Assembly: GCA_010405405.1 (NCBI GenBank)
Contig: MU004236.1
Span: 2,300,070-2,364,069 of the forward strand
Direction of reading: 5' to 3'
DNA from: Microthyrium microscopicum
Lineage: Eukaryota
Length of the DNA: 64,000 nt
This document shows, piece by piece, positions 6,735 to 61,883 of the stretch. The stretch's first letter is position 1, and each line of letters begins with the position of its first letter. The position numbers and the translations under genes are program-made. A model generated the notes under the pieces. It was given only the letters and a program-made list of their open reading frames with translations, was not told the DNA's origin and made no database searches.

Positions 6735-9335
<2,601 letters not shown>

Positions 9336-25036: not shown

Positions 25037-27936
25037 ATGGTGAAGTAAGTTAATACTCGACGAAAATTCTCTGGATAGCGCATATGGTGCCTGCTTTGAG
25101 CCTCGAGCGTGAGCTCTGCTGTTTGCGCTGCCCAGAGAGCTCAGTATTCTAGTTGTGCTATGGAACCTTGCTGACATATATCACAGCTTCACAGTCGAAG
25201 AGGTATGCGATACCGCCATCCATCACGATCCCCTTCAATAATCTTGCAATAATATACTGACTATGTTTAATAAAGATCCGTGAGCTCATGGACAAGGCTG
25301 CCAATGTCCGGAACATGTCCGTCATTGCGCATGGTATGCAGCCACCTGCAAACTTAGTTTCGAGAGCTTGGGCTAATTTTATTGACCACAGTCGACCATG
25401 GAAAGTCCACGCTCACCGACTCTCTTGTTCAGCGTGCCGGTATTATTTCGGCCGCCAAAGCTGGCGAGGCTCGATTTACCGATACTCGCGCCGACGAGCA
25501 GGAACGTGGTGTAACCATCAAGTCCACTGCCATCTCCCTATATGCCCAATTAAAGGAAGAGGAGGACTTGAAGGAAATTCCCTTCAAGGTCGAGAAGAAC
25601 GATTTCTTGATCAATCTCATCGACTCCCCCGGTCACGTTGATTTCTCTTCTGAAGTTACTGCTGCTCTCCGTGTCACTGACGGTGCTCTCGTTGTCGTCG
25701 ACACCATCGAAGGTGTGTGCGTGCAAACCGAGACTGTGCTTCGTCAAGCTCTTGGTGAGCGTATCAAGCCTGTCGTCATCATCAACAAGGTCGATCGTGC
25801 ACTGCTCGAACTCCAGCTTGAGAAGGAAGATCTTTTCCAGAATTTCTCTCGTGTCATTGAGTCCGTCAACGTCGTTATCTCTACATATTTCGACAAATCT
25901 CTTGGTGATGTCCAAGTCTACCCAGACAAGGGTACCGTGGCCTTCGGCTCTGGTCTCCATGGATGGGCCTTCACAATTCGCCAATTCGCTGCGAGATACG
26001 CCAAGAAGTTTGGTGTTGACAAGAACAAGATGATGAGCCGTCTTTGGGTAAGTGATACTTGAACGTAAATCTGTTCCACCCCGTTGCTAACAGCTTACAG
26101 GGTGACCAATGGTTCAATCCAAAGACCAAGAAGTGGACTACAACTGCCCCAGACGGTGTTGAACGTTCCTTCAACTCCTTTGTTCTTGATCCAATCTACA
26201 AGATTTTCAATGCGGTCATGAACGTCAAGAAGGACGAAGTCTTGAAGCTCGTTAATGCCCTTGACATCAAGCTTACCAACGACGAGAAAGACCTCGAAGG
26301 CAAGGCTCAGCTCAAGGTCGTTATGCGAAAGTTCCTCCCAGCTGCTGATGCTCTTTTGGAAATGATGATTCTCCATCTCCCATCACCTGCTCAAGCTCAA
26401 AAATACCGTATGGAGACGCTATACGAGGGTCCCCACGACGACGAGGCCGCCATCGGTATCCGAGACTGCGATCCCAAGGGACCTCTCATGCTTTACGTCT
26501 CCAAGATGGTACCGACATCTGATAAGGGTCGTTTCTATGCTTTCGGTCGTGTTTTCTCTGGTACTGTCCGCTCTGGTCTCAAAGTCCGTATCCAAGGTCC
26601 ACATTATACTCCTGGTAAGAAGGACGATTTGTTCATCAAGGCTGTTCAACGTACTATTCTCATGATGGGTCGTTTCATTGAACCTATCGAGGATGTCCCT
26701 GCTGGAAACATTTGCGGTCTTGTCGGAATCGATCAGTTCCTCCTCAAGTCTGGTACTCTCACTACCTCAGAGACTGCCCACAATCTCAAGGTCATGAAAT
26801 TCTCCGTTTCCCCTGTCGTGGAACGCTCCGTCGAGGTCAAGAACGCCAACGATTTGCCCAAGCTGGTCGAAGGTCTCAAGCGTCTTTCAAAGTCAGATCC
26901 ATGTGTCCTCACATACATCAATCCTTCTGGTGACCATATTGTGGCTGGTGCTGGTGAGCTACATTTGGAAATCTGCTTGAAGGATCTTGAGGAGGACCAC
27001 GCTTGCGTGCCTCTCAAGTTCTCCGACCCAGTCGTACAATATCGCGAGTCAGTTGGTGGGATTTCAAGTATTACCGCTCTGTCCAAGTCGCCCAACAAGC
27101 ACAATCGTCTTTATGTCACTGCTCAACCACTCGAGGAGGAGGTCTCCAAGGCTATTGAAGAGGGAAAGATTGGGCCCCGTGATGATTTCAAGGCTCGCGC
27201 TCGTATCCTTGCTGATGAGCACGGCTGGGATGTTACTGATGCCCGTAAGATTTGGTGCTTTGGCCCAGATACTAGCGGCCCCAATCTGTTCGTCGATCAA
27301 ACCAAGGCTGTGCAATACCTCAACGAAATCAAGGACTCTGTCGTCTCTGGTTTCTCTTGGGCAACTCGCGAGGGACCAGTTGCTGAAGAACCCCTCCGAT
27401 CGACTCGTTTCAACCTTCTAGATGTTACCCTCCACGCCGACGCTATCCATCGTGGAGCTGGTCAAATCATGCCTACCTGCCGTCGTGTACTTTACGCATC
27501 TATGCTGTTGGCTAAGCCAGCTATCCTTGAACCTGTTTATCTTGTCGAGATCCAGGTTCCAGAACAAGCCATGGGTGGTATCTATGGTGTGCTCACTCGC
27601 CGTCGTGGTCACGTCTTCGAGGAGGCTCAACGCCCAGGAACTCCTCTTTACAACATCAAGGCATACTTGCCCGTCAACGAGTCTTTCGGTTTCGTCGCCG
27701 ATCTCCGACAAGGTACAGGTGGACAAGCATTCCCACAGTCCGTGTTCGATCATTGGCAGATCCTGCCAGGTGATCCAACAGACAAGGCCACCAAATCCGG
27801 TCAAGTCGTGGAGGCAATGCGTATCAAGAAGGGTCTTAAGCCAGATGTTCCAGATTACACCAACGTAAGTTTTGACACAATACTAATTCGTGAATTCTTT
27901 CATACTAACATGTTCCAGTACTACGACAAGCTATAG
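25037..27936 (+). CDS. EFT2: Translation elongation factor eEF2; 5 introns
   Basis: MVN/FTVEE/IRELMDK...[46 protein letters not shown], diphthamide loop [10 protein letters not shown]-terminal YYDKL. Confidence 0.98.
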
Positions 27937-35672: not shown

Positions 35673-37529
35673 ATGGCACAAAATCCCCTGCCATATACCT
35701 ACTACTCATGTCCATGTGTCAACACGTCCGCGCCAGTTCCCATTTTGGCCGCAAATCGTAAACATTCTCGCGAACAACCCCCTACCGATACCACAGAATT
35801 CGACAATGAAGAGCAGACATTTGACTCACGGTCGCCCCGAGCAAATCTCAGTCTTGTACCTCTAGAACACTTACTATGGTGTACAGAATGTCATCAAATG
35901 CGCTGCGCGCGTTGTGTGCTGGAGGAAGTGCAATGCTGGTATTGTCCAGCATGCCTATTCGAAGTTCCCAGCAGCACTGTAAGAAGTGAGGGCAATAGGT
36001 AATACGTCAGAGCCCCGGCTGTATTTTGGACCAAGATTATGTGCTGACTTATGTTGTACAGATGTACAAGAAGTTGCTACAACTGTCCAATATGTACCTC
36101 ACCCTTGACCATCAATCCGATGGAGGATCCAAGACAGGAAGATAAACCCGAACATGCGACTGGCCCATTCATAATGATGTGCCCGTGGTGCAATTGGTCT
36201 TCGCTGGACTTGGGAATCAAGTTGGAAAAGGGCACCAATGTCACTGCGCAATTGGCAAAGATCCGCAATGGGCGCAAGGCTGGAAAAATCCAGGATGCTG
36301 AAGTTACGAGTCCAACTCAGGAACAACCACTATCACCACTGGCGATACAGCACAGTTCGATAGATGATGCTGAAGCAGAAGCCACATCACCCCGCCCTGA
36401 TATGCTCTCCACAGACCACGACGAACTGTTCACTCGTCTTCGCAATTTCTACCAACAACAAATCGTCGAATCCTCAGAAGCCTCCATGTTTGGCCCTTCA
36501 TTCTCCTCAACAGACGGCTTCTCCTCGCCCTCAGCCATATCCCGTCTCCTCAACATCTACACCGGCAAAAAGACCAAACGCACCAAACCTGTCCCCATGC
36601 GCGAAGCTCTATCCCCATCTGAAGGGCTCCACATCCACTCTCCCGCCGACGACACGGACTCCCTAACATGTCTCTCCACGACCCCTTGGCCGGACACAAC
36701 AACCACCGCCCAACGCGCCCTTCAACCCGGCGACCACGCCCCACCCTTCACATCCGATCTCTGGCCCATCGCCACCCTCCTCCGTACAAAACGCAGTAAA
36801 CGCTGCCGTGCCTGCCGAACCCTCCTCGCGCGTCCAGAAGCACGCATGAACTACCGCTGGCGCATCCGCACCCTAGCACTAAACCACATGCCCAAACTCA
36901 CTCTCCTCCCGCTCGCCACAACCACCACATCTTCTGGCGGCATGCCAACACTAGGTCCAGATCTAGGCACACCAGCACATATAGCGCAGCGTGCATCCCT
37001 CTCTGCGCCACTCCGGACGGGTCAAACACATACATATCTATTAACAACAGCAAATCCACTAGAAGACGTACTAAGCGTAACACTCGCCACACCGCCAACC
37101 ACACCAGGACGCGTAGGCACTAGAGTCACAATCTTATGTCCGCAATTTAGCGTAGGCAAGAACAGCGATGTCTGGGATGAGGCGTTGGGTGCACAGCCAG
37201 CAGCAGCTAGTAAGCGGCGTAGCGGTATGCCGAGTGGAATGCCGACGGTAGGCGAAGACGGAGCGCAAGCACGCGTGGCAGAGGCAGGGAAAGTATGGGC
37301 CAGTGGACGGAACTGGACGAGTGTGGTGGTGGAAGTTGTACCAGGCATGTTGCCCGAAGACGCCAGTGAGGAGGAAGCAGACTTGGAGATTGCGGTCTTT
37401 GTGCGCATCGAGTATGAGACGGACGCTGCTGGAGAAGAAAAGGCGGTAGCGGCAACGGCAAAGGAGAAGCGAGAGGAAGCGTTTTGGTGTGTGCTGGGCG
37501 TGGGCACAATACAGAGCACTTTCGCGTAG
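35673..37529 (+). CDS. DCTN4: Dynactin subunit p62 (DCTN4/ropy-2); 1 intron
   Basis: YTYYSCPC, LLWCTECHQMRCARC, WYCPACLFEVPSSTVRSEGNR/CTRSCYNCPICTSPL, LRTKRSKRCRAC and GRNWTSVVVEVVP. Confidence 0.92.
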
Positions 37530-37654: not shown

Positions 37655-40358
37655 CTATCGTCGGCCAGTGATTGCCTCTGGTAGCCAACTAGTTTTCGTC
37701 GTCTCTGTCTCCAACTCCGGCTCAAACCGCTCTATTGGTATCCCAGCGCGCAGCGGATCCGTGTACGTCTCGACGGTTGACTGCTCTGAAGGTTCACTTG
37801 GTGGAGTGAGGATCCCTGACTTCGTATCCAACGAGCTCTTCTCTTCTCCATTGCGCTCCTCCATGCGCGCAAAGCGGCTTCCTGGTGCTGGACTCGAAGT
37901 TGTTGAAGGCACATTAAAATTCGTCATCGCTCCAAAGTTCGCCATTGCTTCTGGCGTTCCCTCTGCCAGAGATTCCGCAGTTGGTCCGGGTGGTGCGGTC
38001 GTGCCAAAGCTGGTATTACTACTTCCCAGGTTTGTAACCTCAGCACTACTGGATGGATCCGTGGAGTCTGTAGCTGCAGTTTGATCTGACAAGGGCCCAC
38101 CGCGCCCCATGGCACTCTCGTTGTTCATTTCAGCCTCCGTCCTACCGAGGAGTTCATGCCACCAGCGCACATCTTCCGGGTTCGGTTGAATTAGGCTTTT
38201 ACGATTGTCATCGTATTCGTCAATGACAGGATCGTACTCTTTGTTGATAAAATTTGCTCGTTTCTGCAAAAAGTAGCCCCATACGCTGGCAGTGCGTTCT
38301 TTGGCGCGATACTCCTTACGCTCACGCTCGTTATTGAAAAGAAAATTTCCATATTGACAGGAACTTTGATGGTAATACAGACGTCGAAGGAAGTGCGGAG
38401 TGAATTCGAAGCGGGTTGGATTTTGGCGTATCAATTGGTATACGCAGTCCAGGAATTGAAGAAAGACGGGACTGACCTAGTATTGTCAGTTTGGTATCAT
38501 AATTGTCCAAATGGCCAAATGTTGATACTGCTTGAGCAGCTGCCAGGCAGATCTCAAGAAGTAGTCGGCTACAAAGCTATGGATTGCAGATGTTGTCTTT
38601 TGGGGAAATGAACTTACCTCTCCAGGCAGAGTCGTCATCTTTGCATCCTTGGCTAGAGCTTTATTAGCCGCTTCTTGGGCGGCCTCGTCTATCTCATCTT
38701 CATTGCGGCGGCGAAAGAAGCCTTGCGCTTTTGCGATTGCGCTTTCGAAAGCGTTTGATTCAGGTTCCTGGAACTCCAGACTGTCTTCAGTGTTTCGAGA
38801 TTGGCGATTGGCAACCCTCTCATTCTCGATTTCAAACCACTTCTCGTGGCTCAAAAGTCCAGATCGCAGCCGAAACATGTAGCCAAAGGACATCCAATCT
38901 TTCTCAACCAAGACCATGAAACCTTCCATTGTGCGGTAATAGGGGTCCAAGCAGAGTTGTGCTAAAGCACTGAGTTGACTGGTTCGGTCCCAGCCGTCAG
39001 AGCAATGAACCAAAACGTGTGAGTGTTTGAGAGCGATTGTGTCTGCTATTTCTTTGGCGCCAAAAAGGATGCGACTGATGTATCCTCTCCATTTACTTTT
39101 TTCCAAGTGTTGGTACAGTGGAGGAAGAGTGGTTAAATCAGAGTCCTTTAAAGCTTCGACTACTTGGTCTAAAGATCTGCGCATGGTGTGAATGTTGTCG
39201 ATATTGAGAAAGTATTTCCGAGCGCCAGGATATCCGTCCATGTTTTCTGATCCGTAGCCGGTGGCATGCTGTGCAAGCGCATTGACCTGTGGTCTTGCGT
39301 CAAAGATGGCATTGGTTTGTTGAGCGCCATATATCTTGCCAATAATGGCTGTAGGACCATTCGTTGTGGAAACATTCATAGTGTCTCCAGATTCTCGAGC
39401 GCTTGGAGTGGTGACTTGCATAAAGTCAACGCCGTCTGTAATGTTATTAAGATTGGTTAGATCGGTTGTCTGTTGGGGAGGAGTTGGAGTATTAGTGCCC
39501 GATCGAGGGGCGTGTCCGGGCTTTGTGCTTTGAAAGATGGCATTTACAAGTTTTTCGTCCTGAGGACTTCTGCTATTGCGAATACCAGCGGCTGGTTGGG
39601 AGCTTCTTGTGATGGTGCACTTGTTCATGGCGTGCATATAAGAGAGCGCGGGTATTCGAGCTTTAGACCTGAATCCTGCCATATGCTTCAGAGTCGTATC
39701 TGAGATACCCGAAGGGACCACAAGGAGAGCTGGGTATGTACTTGAGTACTACTTTGGTCAGCTTAATTCTCTTCGAGTCAGGGGGGTCATGCCTCAAATT
39801 TAGAGTTGATCTCCGATATCCGCCAACCACTATCCTTACTCTTTCCAGATATTCCCATTCGCGCAAACTCTCTACGCGGATCGTAGATATCCCAGCCCTT
39901 GTACTGTCGTTCACTACTCGAGTTAAAGGTGAAAGCCATGAGCTGATCAACATGGGTGAGTTTGCATGTTGAGCGTTTTATAGTGTCGTAAATCTCACGG
40001 GCTTCTCGTTCTTCTTCAAAGTGAAAGGCTATATATGTAAAATCGCGACATCGTAGCCTTATTTGGGCAGGTAGATGAGAAGCTGGAGGGGATGGCCGGT
40101 AGTGGCAGAAGTTGATCATGGGATAAGGTATCCAGGTCTCGCGGAAGGTCTGCTCGGGTTTCGGCGATGGTGTAGAATCGTCATTTTGCGGAATTGGGTA
40201 CTTGAATGTGATGTGATGGTCCTTCATGAGCAATTCGCCGGACAGTGACTTTCCCTGCCTCCAGCATTTGACCTTCTCAGCCTATAACCCCAACGTTAGC
40301 TACGATCATGTTAGCATTTAGAGCCGTAGTATACTTTTGCTCGTTTTATTCTCTCCAT
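37655..40358 (-). CDS. YMR1: Myotubularin-family phosphoinositide 3-phosphatase; 3 introns
   Basis: Catalytic VHCSDGWDRT, FRSKARIPALSY, FDARPQVNA, LVEKDWMSFG and SPVFLQFLDCVYQL. Confidence 0.93.
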
Positions 40359-55208: not shown

Positions 55209-56431
55209 GTTTGTTGATATATTGCATATTCCAAGTTGGTAAAGGCATTGTTTAACCTTTGGATTGGTATAGAGGTTTCGATAGTCGGGCGGATACATTG
55301 TTTGTAGTTCCAAGACTCACTGAATATAGAGTTTTCACGCAATGTTGATCGAATGGTGATTGTCGTAGGCTGCTGACGAAGATATGTTTCAACTTATCTG
55401 CTTCATGATATGGTTCTTACACGCAAGGTTGTCGTTCAGCACAGGGGGAAACAAAACAGCGGAGTTAATGGAGAGGACTGCTTGTGTCTTCAGATTTCCT
55501 GAAACACGTGTCCTCAATACCACGTCTTTTGCAGTATTTTTCCAAGACATCAAGCAAGTGGAAAATGCTTGTCATAAAGTTTTTTAATGCTTGGCTATCG
55601 AGTGCAGGAAAAGAGCGCGTATGTATGCGTTTGCTTTAGGATATAATCTTACCTCGTAGCAAGCGTCCGACGGCAACGTGTTCTGGCATAGTTTGGAACA
55701 AACCTAAAATTTAAAAATCTTGGGAAAGTCGGGATGATGTTGAGCAATAATTGGCGTGACGGATTCAAAACGCGTACAGAAGCATACAATGTGGGGTTGA
55801 GGAGTTGATTGTAACAGCTTGACCTAGAAAGTGCGGCATAGGGCATGAAAGCTCAATAATACGGAGTATGATCTCAAAGGTAAAGTGTCAGACAGCGTAA
55901 AGTCAGCGGCTGGAGGCATTCAGTTATGTTGAACCAAAAGTTTTTGTTGATGTTGACGAAGATGGTGTCGAGTCGAGCAGAGACTCCAGAGAGGAATGGC
56001 AGTTGATCTTGGTACTCTAGATCAGTCTAGCCTGATTCAGAGGTGACCCTAGCAAGCTGTTTGCCAATAACATCACGAGAAAGACACCTTGAGGGCGTGA
56101 CTAATCACGTCATCGCGCATAACAGTCCAGACTGGGCAACTGCAAGTGGGCAAACCCCAGCCTTTCCCATTTTTGGCGTAGTCATACACAGCAACTTGCA
56201 AGGTCCCGCCGCGCCCACCTTTGCTGCCAGGCACCACCAGGAACCACATCAATCTCCACCTGCTATCTCGCCTACTTTCCACGCGATATCTACTAATAAA
56301 CAACTACTCAAAACACAAGTGCGGCACATACCGCTTGCTGTGCCCTTCGTTTTTTCCCTGCAACCTGCGCAGCTCAGATATCTACATCCGCCCAGAGCGA
56401 CTATGCGCCGCGTTGCGCGTTTGCATTCCTG

Positions 56432-58933
56432 ATGACATGTTGCTGTGATACGGCGTGTTCCAGCACATGTCCAGCATTCCAACAGCGTCAGAAACTGCAC
56501 GATTTGGAGGACAAGAATACGCTTGCCGGAGAACTGGGCCAGGTACGTACCCTCCTCTCATGAGTTATACAAGAGCCGCCACTGCTCAGATCTGCCTTTT
56601 GCGCCTGCCATATATGCACATATCAAGTTATCATTATGTTGTCGCTTCTGCCTCAGCCTGTCCCAGCGCCCTTACTCTTGCCAGAGTATGGTGCAATGGA
56701 CGATCCGAGTCATTTCCCCAACTCCAACTCTTCATTTCTGGATCAGATGGCTCGCACCACCTCACAGTCGCTAACCTTTATGCTTCAGGCTTTGCTGGCG
56801 CGCCATGAGAATTACGTTGCTGAAGCTGAGAAAGAACGCCGTCGCATGATGGACACTATCCAATCACTAGAGGAGAAGAATTCGCAGCTAGAGGACACCA
56901 ATAAACGAACTATCCAGGAGAATCGCGACCTTCTCGATCAACTTGAATCACTGAATGGCGCAGTTAAGGACTCGGAGGCCAAAGTTCAATCGCTGAGTGA
57001 CGTTTTGCACTCTACCGAGTATGAGTTGGAGCGCATGAATGGATTGGCAAGTCGGACAGAACAGTTGCATCAGTCGTTGGCACAGTTGGAGGATGATCTT
57101 GCTGCTTCCAATTCAGCGGTCGTGTCGACTAGAGACGAGCACAAGGCAGCCACCTTACGCTGGCAGAGAGCGGAGAGAACTATCACGGAACTACAAAGGG
57201 AGATTGAACAGATTGAAGTTGAGGCAAAGATAGAACGAGAAAGACATGCCGATGTTTGTGCCACTAGCCGGGGCGATCACAAAGATGCTAACGATATACA
57301 GGTTCTTTCTCGGATGGAAAGAAGAAGAGCGGTGGAAAATCAGCTACTTCAAAATCGACCCTGGAAACGCACCGAAGATAGTGAAAACGGCGTGGTTTCT
57401 CACTTCGTCAAAGATATTCTGCAGGACAATGCCAACTTACAACTCGGTATCATGGAGCTTCGAGACATGCTCCAAAGATCCAATGACGAAGTGGAGCAAC
57501 TGAGGGATCAAGTTCTACTCTCGCCATCTCTAAACGAAGCTCCTGATCCATCAGGTGCCCAAACGCCAACCCTGGGCTCAGAACTGGGTGGAACAACGAG
57601 AGAGTTGCATGTGCATCATCACTACCATCCGCCAGCAAAGACAGAGACTAGAAAGCCTCGAGCGCCGGCTCTCCGCAGAAAAGGCAAGCAGCGGCCCAGT
57701 GTATCACATACACCTCGATCTTCGATTTCACTGGGCCCGTCCACTCCATCATCATCTTCAGCAATCCTCAACAACACATCTGTAACAATTCCGACAAATC
57801 GGAATTCGAAGCGATGGTCTACGCAGTCGCACCAAACTGGCTTTACTAGTTCCTCATCACTCCCAAGCTCACCATACACCGACTCAATATTTGACCGAGC
57901 ATTTCCTGATACAGCTACGGATATCTCTCGACCTTCAAGTCCAGACAGTCTTAGCCTCTCGCCGCGAAATTCAAGCGGCTTTGGTGGCTATGACATGTCG
58001 AAACGAAGCTCGATTGAAAACACGATTTCCAATCCTCTCATTGAGCCTCTGCGACGGTCCATATCAGAAAATTCTGCTTCTTTCTCGCAGAAAGCAGAAA
58101 GTCCGTCCCGGGAATCTATCCATGAATTACCTACAACTCATTCTATTATCCTTGAAGAAAACGAAGATTTGGACTCTTTGTCACATTCGCCTGCAAAGAA
58201 ATCTCAACAACCATCTAATACTCAACCTATACAAATACACTCACCCATTCGACCTACCCTTAGACGTGCAGCATCGCACGAATCCCTAATATCAATCCAT
58301 GGCATGGATATACATACACTCAACACCCGCCCTTCCCAGCTGTTGCTAGGAAAATATGTCGCAGCTCCAACTACTTCTGCAAGTCAGATCGGCCTATCCG
58401 ACGCGAATGCACTTGCAGTACGCTCTTCACCCAGAGATCCACATCCAGTTCGATCAAGCAGTCAGTCCTACCTAAGCAGTATCGCTGCTGTGCAAAACAC
58501 CCGGACTCTTGCCCGGAAAGAAAGCAAATCCTCTATTGGCCGCGTAGGAGGATGGATGTTTGGCAAATGGAGTGTTGGCATTGGCGGCAGCGCTGCAACC
58601 AAAGACTCCTCTCCAGTACCCGCCCCTGCTCTCTCAATCACGAACGACACTGGAAGACCTGCTTCAATTGATCACCAGTCCAACGACTCGGCTAGCATCA
58701 AGTCCAACACCACCACATCTACCACAGATCATCCAGGCGGCCAATCCATACCGTCTCGGTCCACCCCATCCCGCTCACTGGCAGCGTCACCTCGCAAGAT
58801 GTTTATGCGTAGCCCAGGTATCAATCAATCAGGTCCGATTGGCTGGCTCCCGCCACCTCGCAGGCTTGATCCTATGCCAGTTATGCGTACTTTAGATATG
58901 GAGGCTTTACAAGAAGGACTGGAGGATGGATGA
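56432..58933 (+). CDS. Coiled-coil protein (~735 aa) with an N-terminal Cys cluster, CC1-box-like and Spindly-like motifs and a long Ser-rich tail
   Basis: Exon 1 (56432-56542, MTCCCDTACSSTC...LAGELGQ) joins ALLARHENYVAEAE via intron 56543-56788 (GTACGT...GCTAAC...CAG). Second intron 57254-57301. Heptad-rich region follows. Confidence 0.8.
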
Positions 58934-59370: not shown

Positions 59371-60033
<663 letters not shown>

Positions 60034-60187: not shown

Positions 60188-61883
60188 TTAGAATTCCTCC
60201 GACATATCATCACTGTCTATGTCATCACTATCTACAACAATTGTTTTTCGCTTTGTTCGCATCAGTTTCCGAAGTCTGGTCTCAAGAGCACAAACCAAGG
60301 CAATCAAATCTTCCATATCCAACGCCAAAGGCTCCGCCACCGCCTGGTAGAACGCCTTTGCTACGCCATCCAGATTATCCACATGAGTAATTCGCAAATA
60401 CTCCGCACCCGGTCGATGATGACCAGCCGGGAGCTTCTTTTGCGCCTTTTTAACCTTCAAACCAGCCTGCACCTCCTTGAGCCTTTTCAGCTGCGCCTCC
60501 CGAACCTCCACCTCATCTACCTCCACCAGCTTCCTCGGCTTCTCCTCGATAGGGAACATCTCAAATATAGCCTGCTGATGCTCATCTTTCTTCGACATTG
60601 CATACAACTCATCTGGCCGAGCATATGTATCAGCAAACCAATCCATGTACTGATCCAGCCTTTCCTCCGAGAGATATAGCACGTCCTTTTCCGTCATATC
60701 GATAGCTTCTGCGTGGGTCATGACTCGCTGGTTTGCGCGCGCCTCATTGCGCTTCTTGCGGCTTTTATGCCACGCTTCCCAATCTAGTGTTGCCATAGCT
60801 GGCTCGGCATTGGTCTCAGGCACCACGAGTTTTGCGTCAAATGGGAATATTAATTTTGTGGCGATAACGACTAGCGCGGCAAGTTGCTGCTCTGGTACGT
60901 CTTTCCGCCATTCTCGTCGTGAGCGTTCAGGGAAGTGAAAGTCAAACTCTAGTAGTGCGGCCAGATGTTTGACGGCTGGGTATATCTCTAGTGGCAAGGC
61001 GACGTCTTGGATAATTCGATATAGACACAGTGGGACATTGAGCGCGGGTAATTCGAGACCTATTTCTTCCTTGTAGGCAGCGAATAGTAGGGCGGTTTTC
61101 TCCTGTATTCTTGTTGCGCTGATGGCGCCAGGTGGGCGCAGCAGGTTGAGTGATTGGGGTGATATTCGATCTCGCATGTCTTGGGGAAGATAGGCGGGTG
61201 CGTTTACAAAAAGGAGTTGTTCGCTGCCTGCCCAGCGTACTAGGTCGCCGAGAAGGACTGGTATGCGGAGGATGAATGCTGCTAGGTAGCAGAGAGAGAT
61301 CGTCTCGTCGATGGTGGGTGGTTGGTTGAACTTTAGTTTCTTAAGAGAAATGTCTTGTTCTGCGTCGAGTTGTGTGTTGAATATTTCTTGCGCTGTGCTG
61401 TCGAACTTGAATGTGAGGGCGTTGAGGCGCTGCTCCCATAATGCGCAGAGCAATTCCTGAACCATGTCAGCGCGTCAGTACATAGACTCTCTAAGTTGAA
61501 AGATACCTCAAATTCGGCGGGAAATTTCTGCTCTTGACATAACCACCAGCTTTGTTTGCGTAGAATCCATTGATGACATAAAAGCATCAAGTTTATCTGG
61601 TCGTGGCCAACGAGAACTGTAGCTTGTCAGTTGTCGTGAACTGCCAGAGCTTGTGAGTGTAATTACTATTGGATTTCTTCTTCTCTCGTTTCTCTTTCTT
61701 CTTTCTAGTTGTCGTTCCTAGTAGATGGTATTCTTCGATTTCATCTCCGGATCCAGTATCTCCTATGAATCGCTGTTTTGTGTGGCCGTATTCGCAGGTT
61801 TGACTGCCATCGTTGTTTGACCTCCAGAGCGAGGAGTCACAATTCTCGATGCCACAGACGTCGCCTTCAACGAGAACATCCAT
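60188..61883 (-). CDS. RRN7: RNA polymerase I core factor subunit Rrn7/TAF1B; 2 introns
   Basis: N-terminal zinc ribbon CGIENC...CEYGH, then ILRKQSWWL, TISLCYLAAFILRIPVLLGDL, LPLEIYPAV and LVVIATKLIFPFD. Confidence 0.82.

Follow-up and report, generated by a model that had tools for sequence, protein, structure and literature searches.

A filamentous-ascomycete coiled-coil protein with a CC1-box-like motif and a Vac17-like tail as a candidate dynein-dynactin adaptor

Structure of the gene and its transcript

In the window analysed here, a stretch of 64,000 nucleotides of the Microthyrium microscopicum genome (GenBank assembly GCA_010405405.1, contig MU004236.1, positions 2,300,070 to 2,364,069 of the forward strand), we read a three-exon gene on the + strand at 56432-58933, whose product is the public protein P0003 of 735 residues ([quoted passage not shown]). 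An initial annotation, made from the letters and a track of open reading frames (ORFs), had proposed that a hidden first exon completes a CC1-box-like motif at this locus and that the gene is a candidate fungal activating adaptor for dynein and dynactin. Our follow-up points, tentatively, to such an adaptor layout in the front third of the protein, and to a Vac17-like region in its tail. All positions below are those of the window, and every feature of the gene lies on the + strand.

Exon 1 (56432..56542) comprises 37 codons from the ATG at 56432, encodes residues 1-37 with the translation MTCCCDTACSSTCPAFQQRQKLHDLEDKNTLAGELGQ, and is backed by the window sequence, by P0003, by a spliced contig of the public sequencing run X1 and by alignment A1, which holds 23 full-length family members. 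It contains a cysteine cluster, C3-C5 (56438-46) together with C13 (56468-70), all four of which are invariant in A1, and closes with A32-G-E-L-G36 (56525-56539; A32 and G36 invariant), the opening half of the CC1-box-like motif, followed by Q37. Intron 1 (56543..56788, 246 nt, phase 0, GTACGT...GCTAAC...CAG; X1 contig and P0003) separates Q37 from A38 and splits the motif, which resumes with ALLARHE (56789-56809; L39, R42, H43 and E44 invariant in A1) at the start of exon 2. The latter (56789..57253, residues 38-192; sequence, P0003, X1 contig and AF2 structure model) begins ALLARHENY in phase 0 and also holds most of the first long helix of the model. Intron 2 (57254..57301, 48 nt, in frame, GTTTGT...GCTAAC...CAG) was missed by the initial annotation; its sequence is absent from both P0003 and the relatives, and in the ORF track it appears as 16 extra residues within the coiled coil. 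Exon 3 (57302..58933; sequence, P0003 and X1 contig) encodes residues 193-735 and ends in the stop codon at 58931-58933. Compared with the ORF-track reading, P0003 has exon 1 added and the 16 intron-2 residues removed, and is otherwise exact.

A single contig of 2374 nt from X1, the sole run matching the locus and one whose RNA nature is presumed, covers 56272-56539, 56786-57253 and 57302-58904, with both of its ends bearing adapter remnants. Its joints, "skips 246, GT..AG, cut +3" (equivalent to 56542/56789) and "skips 48, GT..AG", bridge both introns, and since it lacks both of them exactly, it is best read as cDNA. The exon 1-exon 2 splice is thus confirmed by P0003, by this contig and by the junction sequence of correctly spliced relatives, in agreement with the phase-0 splice from GTACGT at 56543 to CAG at 56788 that had been claimed from the letters, and the 56542/56789 junction that had been singled out for checking against reads is bridged in a run presumed to be RNA. 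The exon itself was hidden only from the ORF track, because P0003 already uses both junctions. The contig starts at 56272 and gives a 5' untranslated region at least as long as 56272..56431, within which an upstream ORF of nine codons (56403-56432, read from the sequence) ends in a TGA that overlaps the main ATG (TGATG). Such a stop-start overlap can couple termination to re-initiation. Finally, an ATG at 56696 lies inside intron 1 and in frame with exon 2, with the frame open through the intron, exactly where the initial annotation had noted it.

The N-terminal coiled coil and its adaptor-like motifs

When the translation of exons 2-3 was used as a query, 1464 of 8000 scored candidates reached E <= 1e-3, and every named protein among the best 120 of these belongs to the Dothideomycetes; a later search added relatives from Leotiomycetes (Monilinia, Lachnellula) and one Lecanoromycete (Caloplaca). 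In the ESM Atlas, the N-terminal part met the family's own Ascomycota clusters (1501 and 101 members) and, nearby, a Basidiomycota cluster (score 0.87), which is a lead only; the C-terminal part returned no usable match there. Pfam scans of the window protein listed no family above cut-off, and PDB searches with the single sequences P0050 and P0061 gave no meaningful chain.

In alignment A1 the N-terminal elements follow in the order CCCGxxxC, A-A-x-L-G-Q-A-L-L-x-R-H-E, ~230 heptad-like residues, VVSHFVKDILQDNANLQxGIVELREML, LxxEL, ELHVHHHYH and RRxKKKR, and those of the serine-rich tail in the order SIFDRVFSD, SRPTSP, LRRAASHESLLSxSGMDIHTLxSRPSQLL, SLLSGMA, KVGGWVFGKWG, PGINQSGPI and LDxEALxEAL. 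The AF2 model, built with A1, has a helix at residues 14-208 (block-mean pLDDT mostly >90) and, beyond a loop at 209-223, another helix at 224-265 (57395..57520), after which the chain is disordered up to a short terminal helix at 725-733. The second helix, with invariant columns from 224 to 260, carries the sequence block that the family conserves best (VVSHFVKDILQDNANLQxGIxELRxML..SN.EVE.LR). The modelled helices are those of a monomer and, together with the heptad pattern, give the length of the coiled coil, a parallel, dimeric state being putative. The coiled coil's break that had been entered as a caveat to the adaptor proposal was in part intron 2, read through unrecognised.

The box was surveyed in 195 family sequences, 114 of which carry the anchor L[LI]xRH[ED]. 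Directly upstream of the anchor, A[AGS]xxG[QK] is found in 35 of the 114, and these are all 35 of the correctly spliced models, so that conservation of the box among orthologues, proposed earlier as a check, is borne out in every model in which the exon is present. In 75 of the 114 intron 1 is read through, which leaves "..SLTFxLQ" or "..[SA]LQ" in front of the anchor, a translation of branch point and CAG acceptor; the remaining four are too short to judge. Read-through models, public and metagenomic alike, lack the cysteine cluster and half of the box, a systematic annotation error that recurs in two further members taken from clusters of ten divergent relatives. The variants observed are AAQLG (17), AGELG (4), AGRLG (3), AAELG, AAKLG, AARLG and ASRIG (2 each), and AARMG, AAQVG and AAQMG (1 each), the last in the Leotiomycete Monilinia (P0185, AAQMGQALL). 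A alone occurs at position 1 and G alone at position 5, and position 2 is limited to A, G or S, a pattern as would be expected of a cleft that requires small side chains. Across the junction, the full conserved stretch reads A-[AGS]-x-x-G-[QK]-A-L-L-x-R-H-E.

To compare this region with known structures we used an N-terminal profile, A4, made from 20 unaltered stretches, each starting 32 residues ahead of the box and ending 100 residues after the box begins. Against 177,635 PDB sequences, A4 gave 31 matches at E <= 10, and the best four were all chains of BICDR1 (E 1.6e-5, 1.6e-5, 1e-4 and 1.8e-3), the only significant PDB match. The fifth was a myosin-GCN4 chimera (E 0.058) and the remainder were generic coiled coils (E >= 0.3). 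The match spans only ~58 residues, with positions 21-78 of A4 aligned to BICDR1 104-161, and it places the family's A-A-x-x-G on A116/A117/G120 of BICDR1, which are the AAXXG of its CC1 box in the available text of bioRxiv 10.1101/2022.03.17.482250. A whole-length profile found nothing significant in the PDB, BICDR1 ranking second (E 1.2) and again aligned on its CC1 box.

Downstream of the coiled coil, a Spindly-motif-like LGSEL (residues 283-287, 57572..57586; L283 and E286 invariant in A1) is placed by the AF2 model in a disordered, proline-rich linker after helix 224-265, in accordance with the earlier claim of such a motif at about residue 283, just past the last coiled coil. Some 10 residues further on lies the histidine-rich HVHHHYH (residues 295-301, 57608..57628; H295, H297, H299, Y300 and H301 invariant), and this second motif allowed us to survey the first: HxHHHYH is present, with at least 45 residues upstream, in 152 family sequences, and within those 45 residues [LI]xxE[LMIVF] occurs in 149 of the 152, its first residue always L. 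LxxEL, whose conservation was likewise put forward for checking, is close to invariant. The three sequences that miss it are P0065, P0185 and P0191, and P0185 is probably a faulty gene model, because the conserved VVSHFVKDIL block is missing from it too. By a rough estimate from residue frequencies, chance would supply such a motif in about 1 in 10 stretches of this length. Counted from the first A of the box, the L of the motif is 251 residues away in the window protein, as the proposed spacing of ~250 residues had it, and 235-266 (median 259) across 34 sequences. For BICDR1 the corresponding distance, from A116 to L347, is 231, and a coiled coil that breaks before the Spindly motif is described as typical of adaptors (bioRxiv 10.1101/2022.03.17.482250, available text).

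The Vac17-like region of the tail

The C-terminal part of the protein, to which the initial annotation had paid no attention, contains, at about residues 505-620 (58238..58585), the counterpart of a region that is Vac17-like in relatives, delimited by the position of the relatives' matches to the Pfam family Vac17 and by conservation in A1. In the window protein it carries LRRAASHESLIS.HGMDIHTL.TRPSQLL, then ..YLSSIA.., then GRVGGWMFGKWS, and R513, S517, H518, S520, S523, G526, D528, P536, Q538, L583, W610 and W615 are invariant in A1. The Pfam profile (PF17321, 441 positions) was run on 106 distinct proteins of the family and matched 14 at E <= 1e-3, a count to be read with the sampling in mind, as part of the scanned proteins had been picked for an existing PF17321 flag and a sample drawn blind to that flag gave 5 of 70. 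Three matches exceed the 25.8-bit cut-off, namely P0061 (38.2 bits, E 1.3e-9), P0159 (32.5 bits) and P0183 (26.5 bits). Matches always fall at profile positions ~237-406 and in the same conserved region of the relatives, and no other Pfam family recurs at this level among the scanned relatives. Profile positions 1-236, which correspond to the helical and Myo2-binding domains, were matched in none of the 106 scanned proteins, and a search aimed at named yeast Vac17 proteins returned only family fragments and relatives from Leotiomycetes and Lecanoromycetes.

What is known of Vac17 itself gives this region a possible meaning. Vac17 is the vacuole-specific receptor of myosin V in budding yeast, and its partner Vac8 is an armadillo protein of the vacuole. 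In the available text of PMC10161063, Vac17 is a protein of 423 residues that binds Vac8 through residues 290-344, where an extended loop (295-308) is recognised via the backbone carbonyls of N298, T300, G302, S304 and I305, and a helix (332-340) contributes L336 and F339. Its N-terminal helical domain is a second Myo2 site, in addition to a separate Myo2-binding domain (bioRxiv 10.1101/2025.03.24.645041 and PMC2173761, available text). As far as the accessible portions of the respective reports go, BLAST gave no Vac17 homologue in C. albicans (PMC2680324) or C. neoformans (PMC12734321), and none was found in higher eukaryotes (PMC2173761). The Vac17-like region of the window protein suggests what the cargo of the family could be.

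Readings of the family and comparison with known systems

The gene structure, the conservation and spacing of the motifs, the helical layout, the N-terminal similarity to BICDR1 and the relatives' matches to the Vac17 profile were all observed here. In the front third of the protein, an A-[AGS]-x-x-G box opens a helix of ~195 residues, which is followed by a break, a helix of 42 residues and a disordered loop with an invariant LxxE[LM] ~250 residues on from the box. We read this, at a probability that we would place just short of even, as a conserved protein of filamentous ascomycetes that acts as a cargo adaptor linked to Vac8 and is laid out like a CC1-box dynein-dynactin adaptor, its binding partners being predicted from the sequence. 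The two sequence relationships involved are one to BICDR1, significant but short, and one to Vac17, partial and carried by relatives. The tail would dock on Vac8 at the membrane of the vacuole or late endosome; the N-terminal coiled coil, as a dimer, would take the helix of the dynein light intermediate chain (LIC) in its box and run along the dynactin filament; and the LxxEL motif would reach p25 at the dynactin pointed end. The outcome would be that dynein is recruited and activated for microtubule-based movement of the vacuole or late endosome in hyphae. Each of these binding steps, the dimerisation and the cargo, as well as the evolutionary direction considered below, we infer.

Several points weigh against this reading, besides the sampling of the Vac17 matches. 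At the box, the window protein lacks AAxxG and has AGELG, a minority variant shared with Venturia-like and Verruconis-like sequences, and the survey of the box covers Dothideomycetes and one Leotiomycete. Among the A4 matches at E <= 10 in the PDB there was no CC1-box adaptor other than BICDR1. Pfam HAP1_N reached the box region only below threshold, with matches to 8 of the 20 N-terminal pieces (best E 0.0092, ~13 bits against a cut-off of 33.9 bits), among many generic coiled-coil matches, and of the 23 whole proteins it matched 4 (best E 0.077). Pfam BicD was listed in no scan of family proteins, and neither of these Pfam models, both named for comparison at the outset, was reached. The QxxH heavy-chain motif, which in CC1-box adaptors stands some 34 residues past the box and has an acidic contact downstream, is not conserved either. 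In the available text of bioRxiv 10.1101/2022.03.17.482250, BICDR1 has a CC2 box of Q150/H153 with E172, and a Spindly motif of L347/L348/E350; in the family, the Q150 column holds Q in 5 of 35 sequences, the H153 column H in 4 of 35, and the E172 column Q in 34 of 35. A conserved block that includes acidic residues, IEENRxLLDQLE, follows the columns equivalent to CC2/HBS1. Because HBS1 chemistry differs widely among adaptors, and because the dynein sites that recognise HBS1-3 are not conserved in A. nidulans (both from the available text of bioRxiv 10.64898/2026.04.25.720804), the failure of QxxH weakens membership of the class more than it weakens the mechanism. The Spindly-like motif mostly has one of G, R, Q and K as its second residue; it thereby misfits the original consensus L-phi-x-E-phi (bioRxiv 10.1101/2022.03.17.482250) and fits the newer JxxE-phi (bioRxiv 10.64898/2026.04.25.720804), both as given in the accessible text. 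At the other end of the protein, the window protein had no Vac17 match in the Pfam scans, and the other 11 of the 14 matching relatives scored 19.4-25.2 bits, below the Pfam cut-off; the Vac17 scores may moreover be inflated by composition, because the matched region is serine-rich and disordered. The CCC..C cluster and HVHHHYH, both features of the family, have no counterpart among known dynein adaptors. The CC1-box adaptor first proposed is thus supported in part: the box, the BICDR1 match, LxxEL and the spacing speak for it, while QxxH/Y, L-phi-x-E-phi and the Pfam models BicD and HAP1_N lend it no support.

A further-reaching version of the adaptor reading holds that the family is an unrecognised CC1-box dynein-dynactin adaptor with the Vac8-binding module of Vac17, that the lineage of Vac17 first supplied a dynein adaptor for the vacuole (possibly one that also served myosin V), and that yeast Vac17 is a shortened, myosin-only derivative. 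The adaptor would on this account have been overlooked because the box is split by a conserved intron and exon 1 is missing from two thirds of the models. We consider this version less likely than not.

The Vac17 relationship can also be taken without dynein. The family would then be the filamentous-fungal counterpart of Vac17 and serve myosin V only, with a tail that binds Vac8, a motif of the disordered middle or the N-terminal helices that bind the cargo-binding domain of myosin V, and a coiled coil that provides dimerisation and reach; the likeness to a CC1 box would be convergent or serve another partner. This is in keeping with the matches of relatives to the Vac17 profile, with the two N-terminal Myo2 sites of Vac17 itself (bioRxiv 10.1101/2025.03.24.645041 and PMC2173761, available text), and with several further invariant motifs, such as SIFDRVFSD, that lie past the coiled coil and ahead of the Vac17-like part. 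However, no family member scanned matches the part of the Vac17 profile, positions 1-236, in which those sites lie; the N-terminus of Vac17 is a three-helix bundle of ~109 residues and not a 250-residue pair of helices; the significant N-terminal match to BICDR1 falls specifically over the CC1 box; and a conserved LxxEL at an adaptor-like distance is left unexplained. We regard a myosin-V-only protein as unlikely.

It is also improbable, in our estimate, that the protein is a coiled-coil scaffold with another job altogether, for example at the microtubule-organising centre, septum, nuclear envelope or cortex, and that the box, LxxEL and the Vac17-like stretch arose by chance or convergence. 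The lack of any Pfam family above cut-off on the window protein, the weak matches to many generic coiled-coil families, the absence of QxxH, and the invariant CCCGxxxC, HVHHHYH and RRxKKKR, unparalleled in dynein adaptors, would all suit a scaffold, as would the label "NUDE domain-containing" that some databases attach to relatives. Yet the E-value for BICDR1 is more than 3,000-fold better than that of the best generic coiled coil and the match is anchored on the box, the two motifs stand at a fixed distance that matches BICDR1, and three relatives score above the cut-off curated for Pfam Vac17, each over the same region; as for the label, NUDE_C is missing from the Pfam listings and no NDEL1/NDE1 chain came up in the PDB searches. 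An identity as NudE/Nde1 was accordingly rejected, NUDE_C being found in no Pfam scan, including those of the so-named P0030 and P0122. That exon 1 is an artefact and the real start lies inside intron 1, at ATG 56696 or later, leaving no complete box, is highly improbable: the in-frame ATG, the open frame and the 75 of 114 relatives' models that begin inside the intron speak for it, whereas the contig joins 56542 to 56789 and reaches 160 nt upstream of ATG 56432 (a minor intron-retaining form stays compatible), P0003 includes the exon, and the exon is conserved in 35 relatives while the N-termini of read-through models have nothing in common beyond the translated branch point and acceptor.

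Invariant elements of the protein also include, besides the cysteine cluster and HVHHHYH, the basic cluster RRKGKQR (residues 317-323, 57674..57694; consensus RRxKKKR, with R317, K321 and R323 invariant in A1). The N-terminal CCC(G)xxxC and HVHHHYH might be sites of metal binding or lipidation, with zinc or palmitoyl conceivable for the former and a metal for the latter. The short terminal helix (residues 725-733, 58898..58924, LDxEALxExL) is conserved as well, L732 being invariant and D724 and L728 at least 90% conserved.

Several other genes were recognised in the window. A gene for the dynactin subunit p62 (DCTN4) lies at 35674-37526 (+), 19 kb upstream of the adaptor candidate, with an ORF at 36048-37526 that matches Pfam Dynactin_p62 (E 1.9e-124; 434 relatives at E <= 1e-3) and a first exon apparently from ATG 35674, the intron ending at 36061. 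We know of no reason to take its proximity for more than coincidence. Just downstream of the candidate, at 59371-60033 (+), is a fusion gene of ubiquitin and ribosomal protein L40 with at least one intron (Pfam ubiquitin, E 6.7e-32; Ribosomal_L40e, E 4.3e-12). The window further contains a gene for an Rrn7/TAF1B-like factor (60191-61474, -), one for a myotubularin-like phosphatase in three ORF pieces (37658-40281, -), one for a GTPase of the EF-G/EF-2 type (25358-27933, +) and one for Hsp70 (7012-9165, -).

If the adaptor reading is right, a BICD/BICDR-type adaptor exists in fungi and the CC1-box solution is not limited to animals, and the fungal dynein field gains a new adaptor that is amenable to genetics. 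From the Vac17-like tail comes a concrete hypothesis on the cargo, namely vacuoles or late endosomes that bear Vac8, and the tail would join two literatures that now treat Vac17 as exclusive to budding yeast. We found no description of the family in the literature on Vac17, Vac8, dynein, dynactin and activating adaptors, and no paper there on such a fungal adaptor, in line with the earlier remark that none was known to be described in filamentous fungi. Exon 1 and the box are missing from roughly two thirds of the family's public models, and the family's annotations therefore need correcting.

Among the closest known systems is the class of BICDR1 (BICDL1), BICD2, Spindly, TRAK1/2 and HAP1. 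With these the family shares a long coiled coil that opens with an AAxxG-type box and is interrupted by a break, an LxxE-phi motif in the loop after the last helix, and a C-terminal part that plausibly binds cargo. Unlike them it is fungal, it has neither a QxxH/Y motif at CC2/HBS1 nor membership in Pfam BicD or HAP1_N, its C-terminal two thirds are disordered instead of forming further coiled coils, and position 2 of its Spindly-like motif is not hydrophobic.

With Vac17 the family has in common that both are largely disordered adaptors with short motifs, and that the profile range of ~237-406 matched by relatives takes in the Vac8-binding domain at 290-344. In addition, the family's conserved L-L-S-G-[MF] after LRRxxSHES has two hydrophobic residues three apart, which may correspond to L336 and F339 of the HC helix. 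The family differs in length (~700-800 residues vs 423) and in its first 300 residues, a long coiled coil as opposed to a three-helix bundle of ~109 residues and a Myo2-binding domain, which together make up residues 1-170 of Vac17.

The activating adaptors discussed for filamentous fungi are Hook proteins (PMC7649786 and bioRxiv 10.64898/2026.04.25.720804, available text), and in HOOK3 the Spindly-type motif is LAAEI (bioRxiv 10.64898/2026.04.25.720804, available text). Like Hook-FTS-FHIP (HookA/Hok1), the family is a candidate coiled-coil link from an organelle to dynein-dynactin in hyphae, with a motif of the LxxE-phi type after the first coiled coil. In contrast to it, the family has no Hook domain, its putative LIC site is a CC1-type box, and its proposed cargo end is Vac17-like instead of FTS/FHIP-binding.

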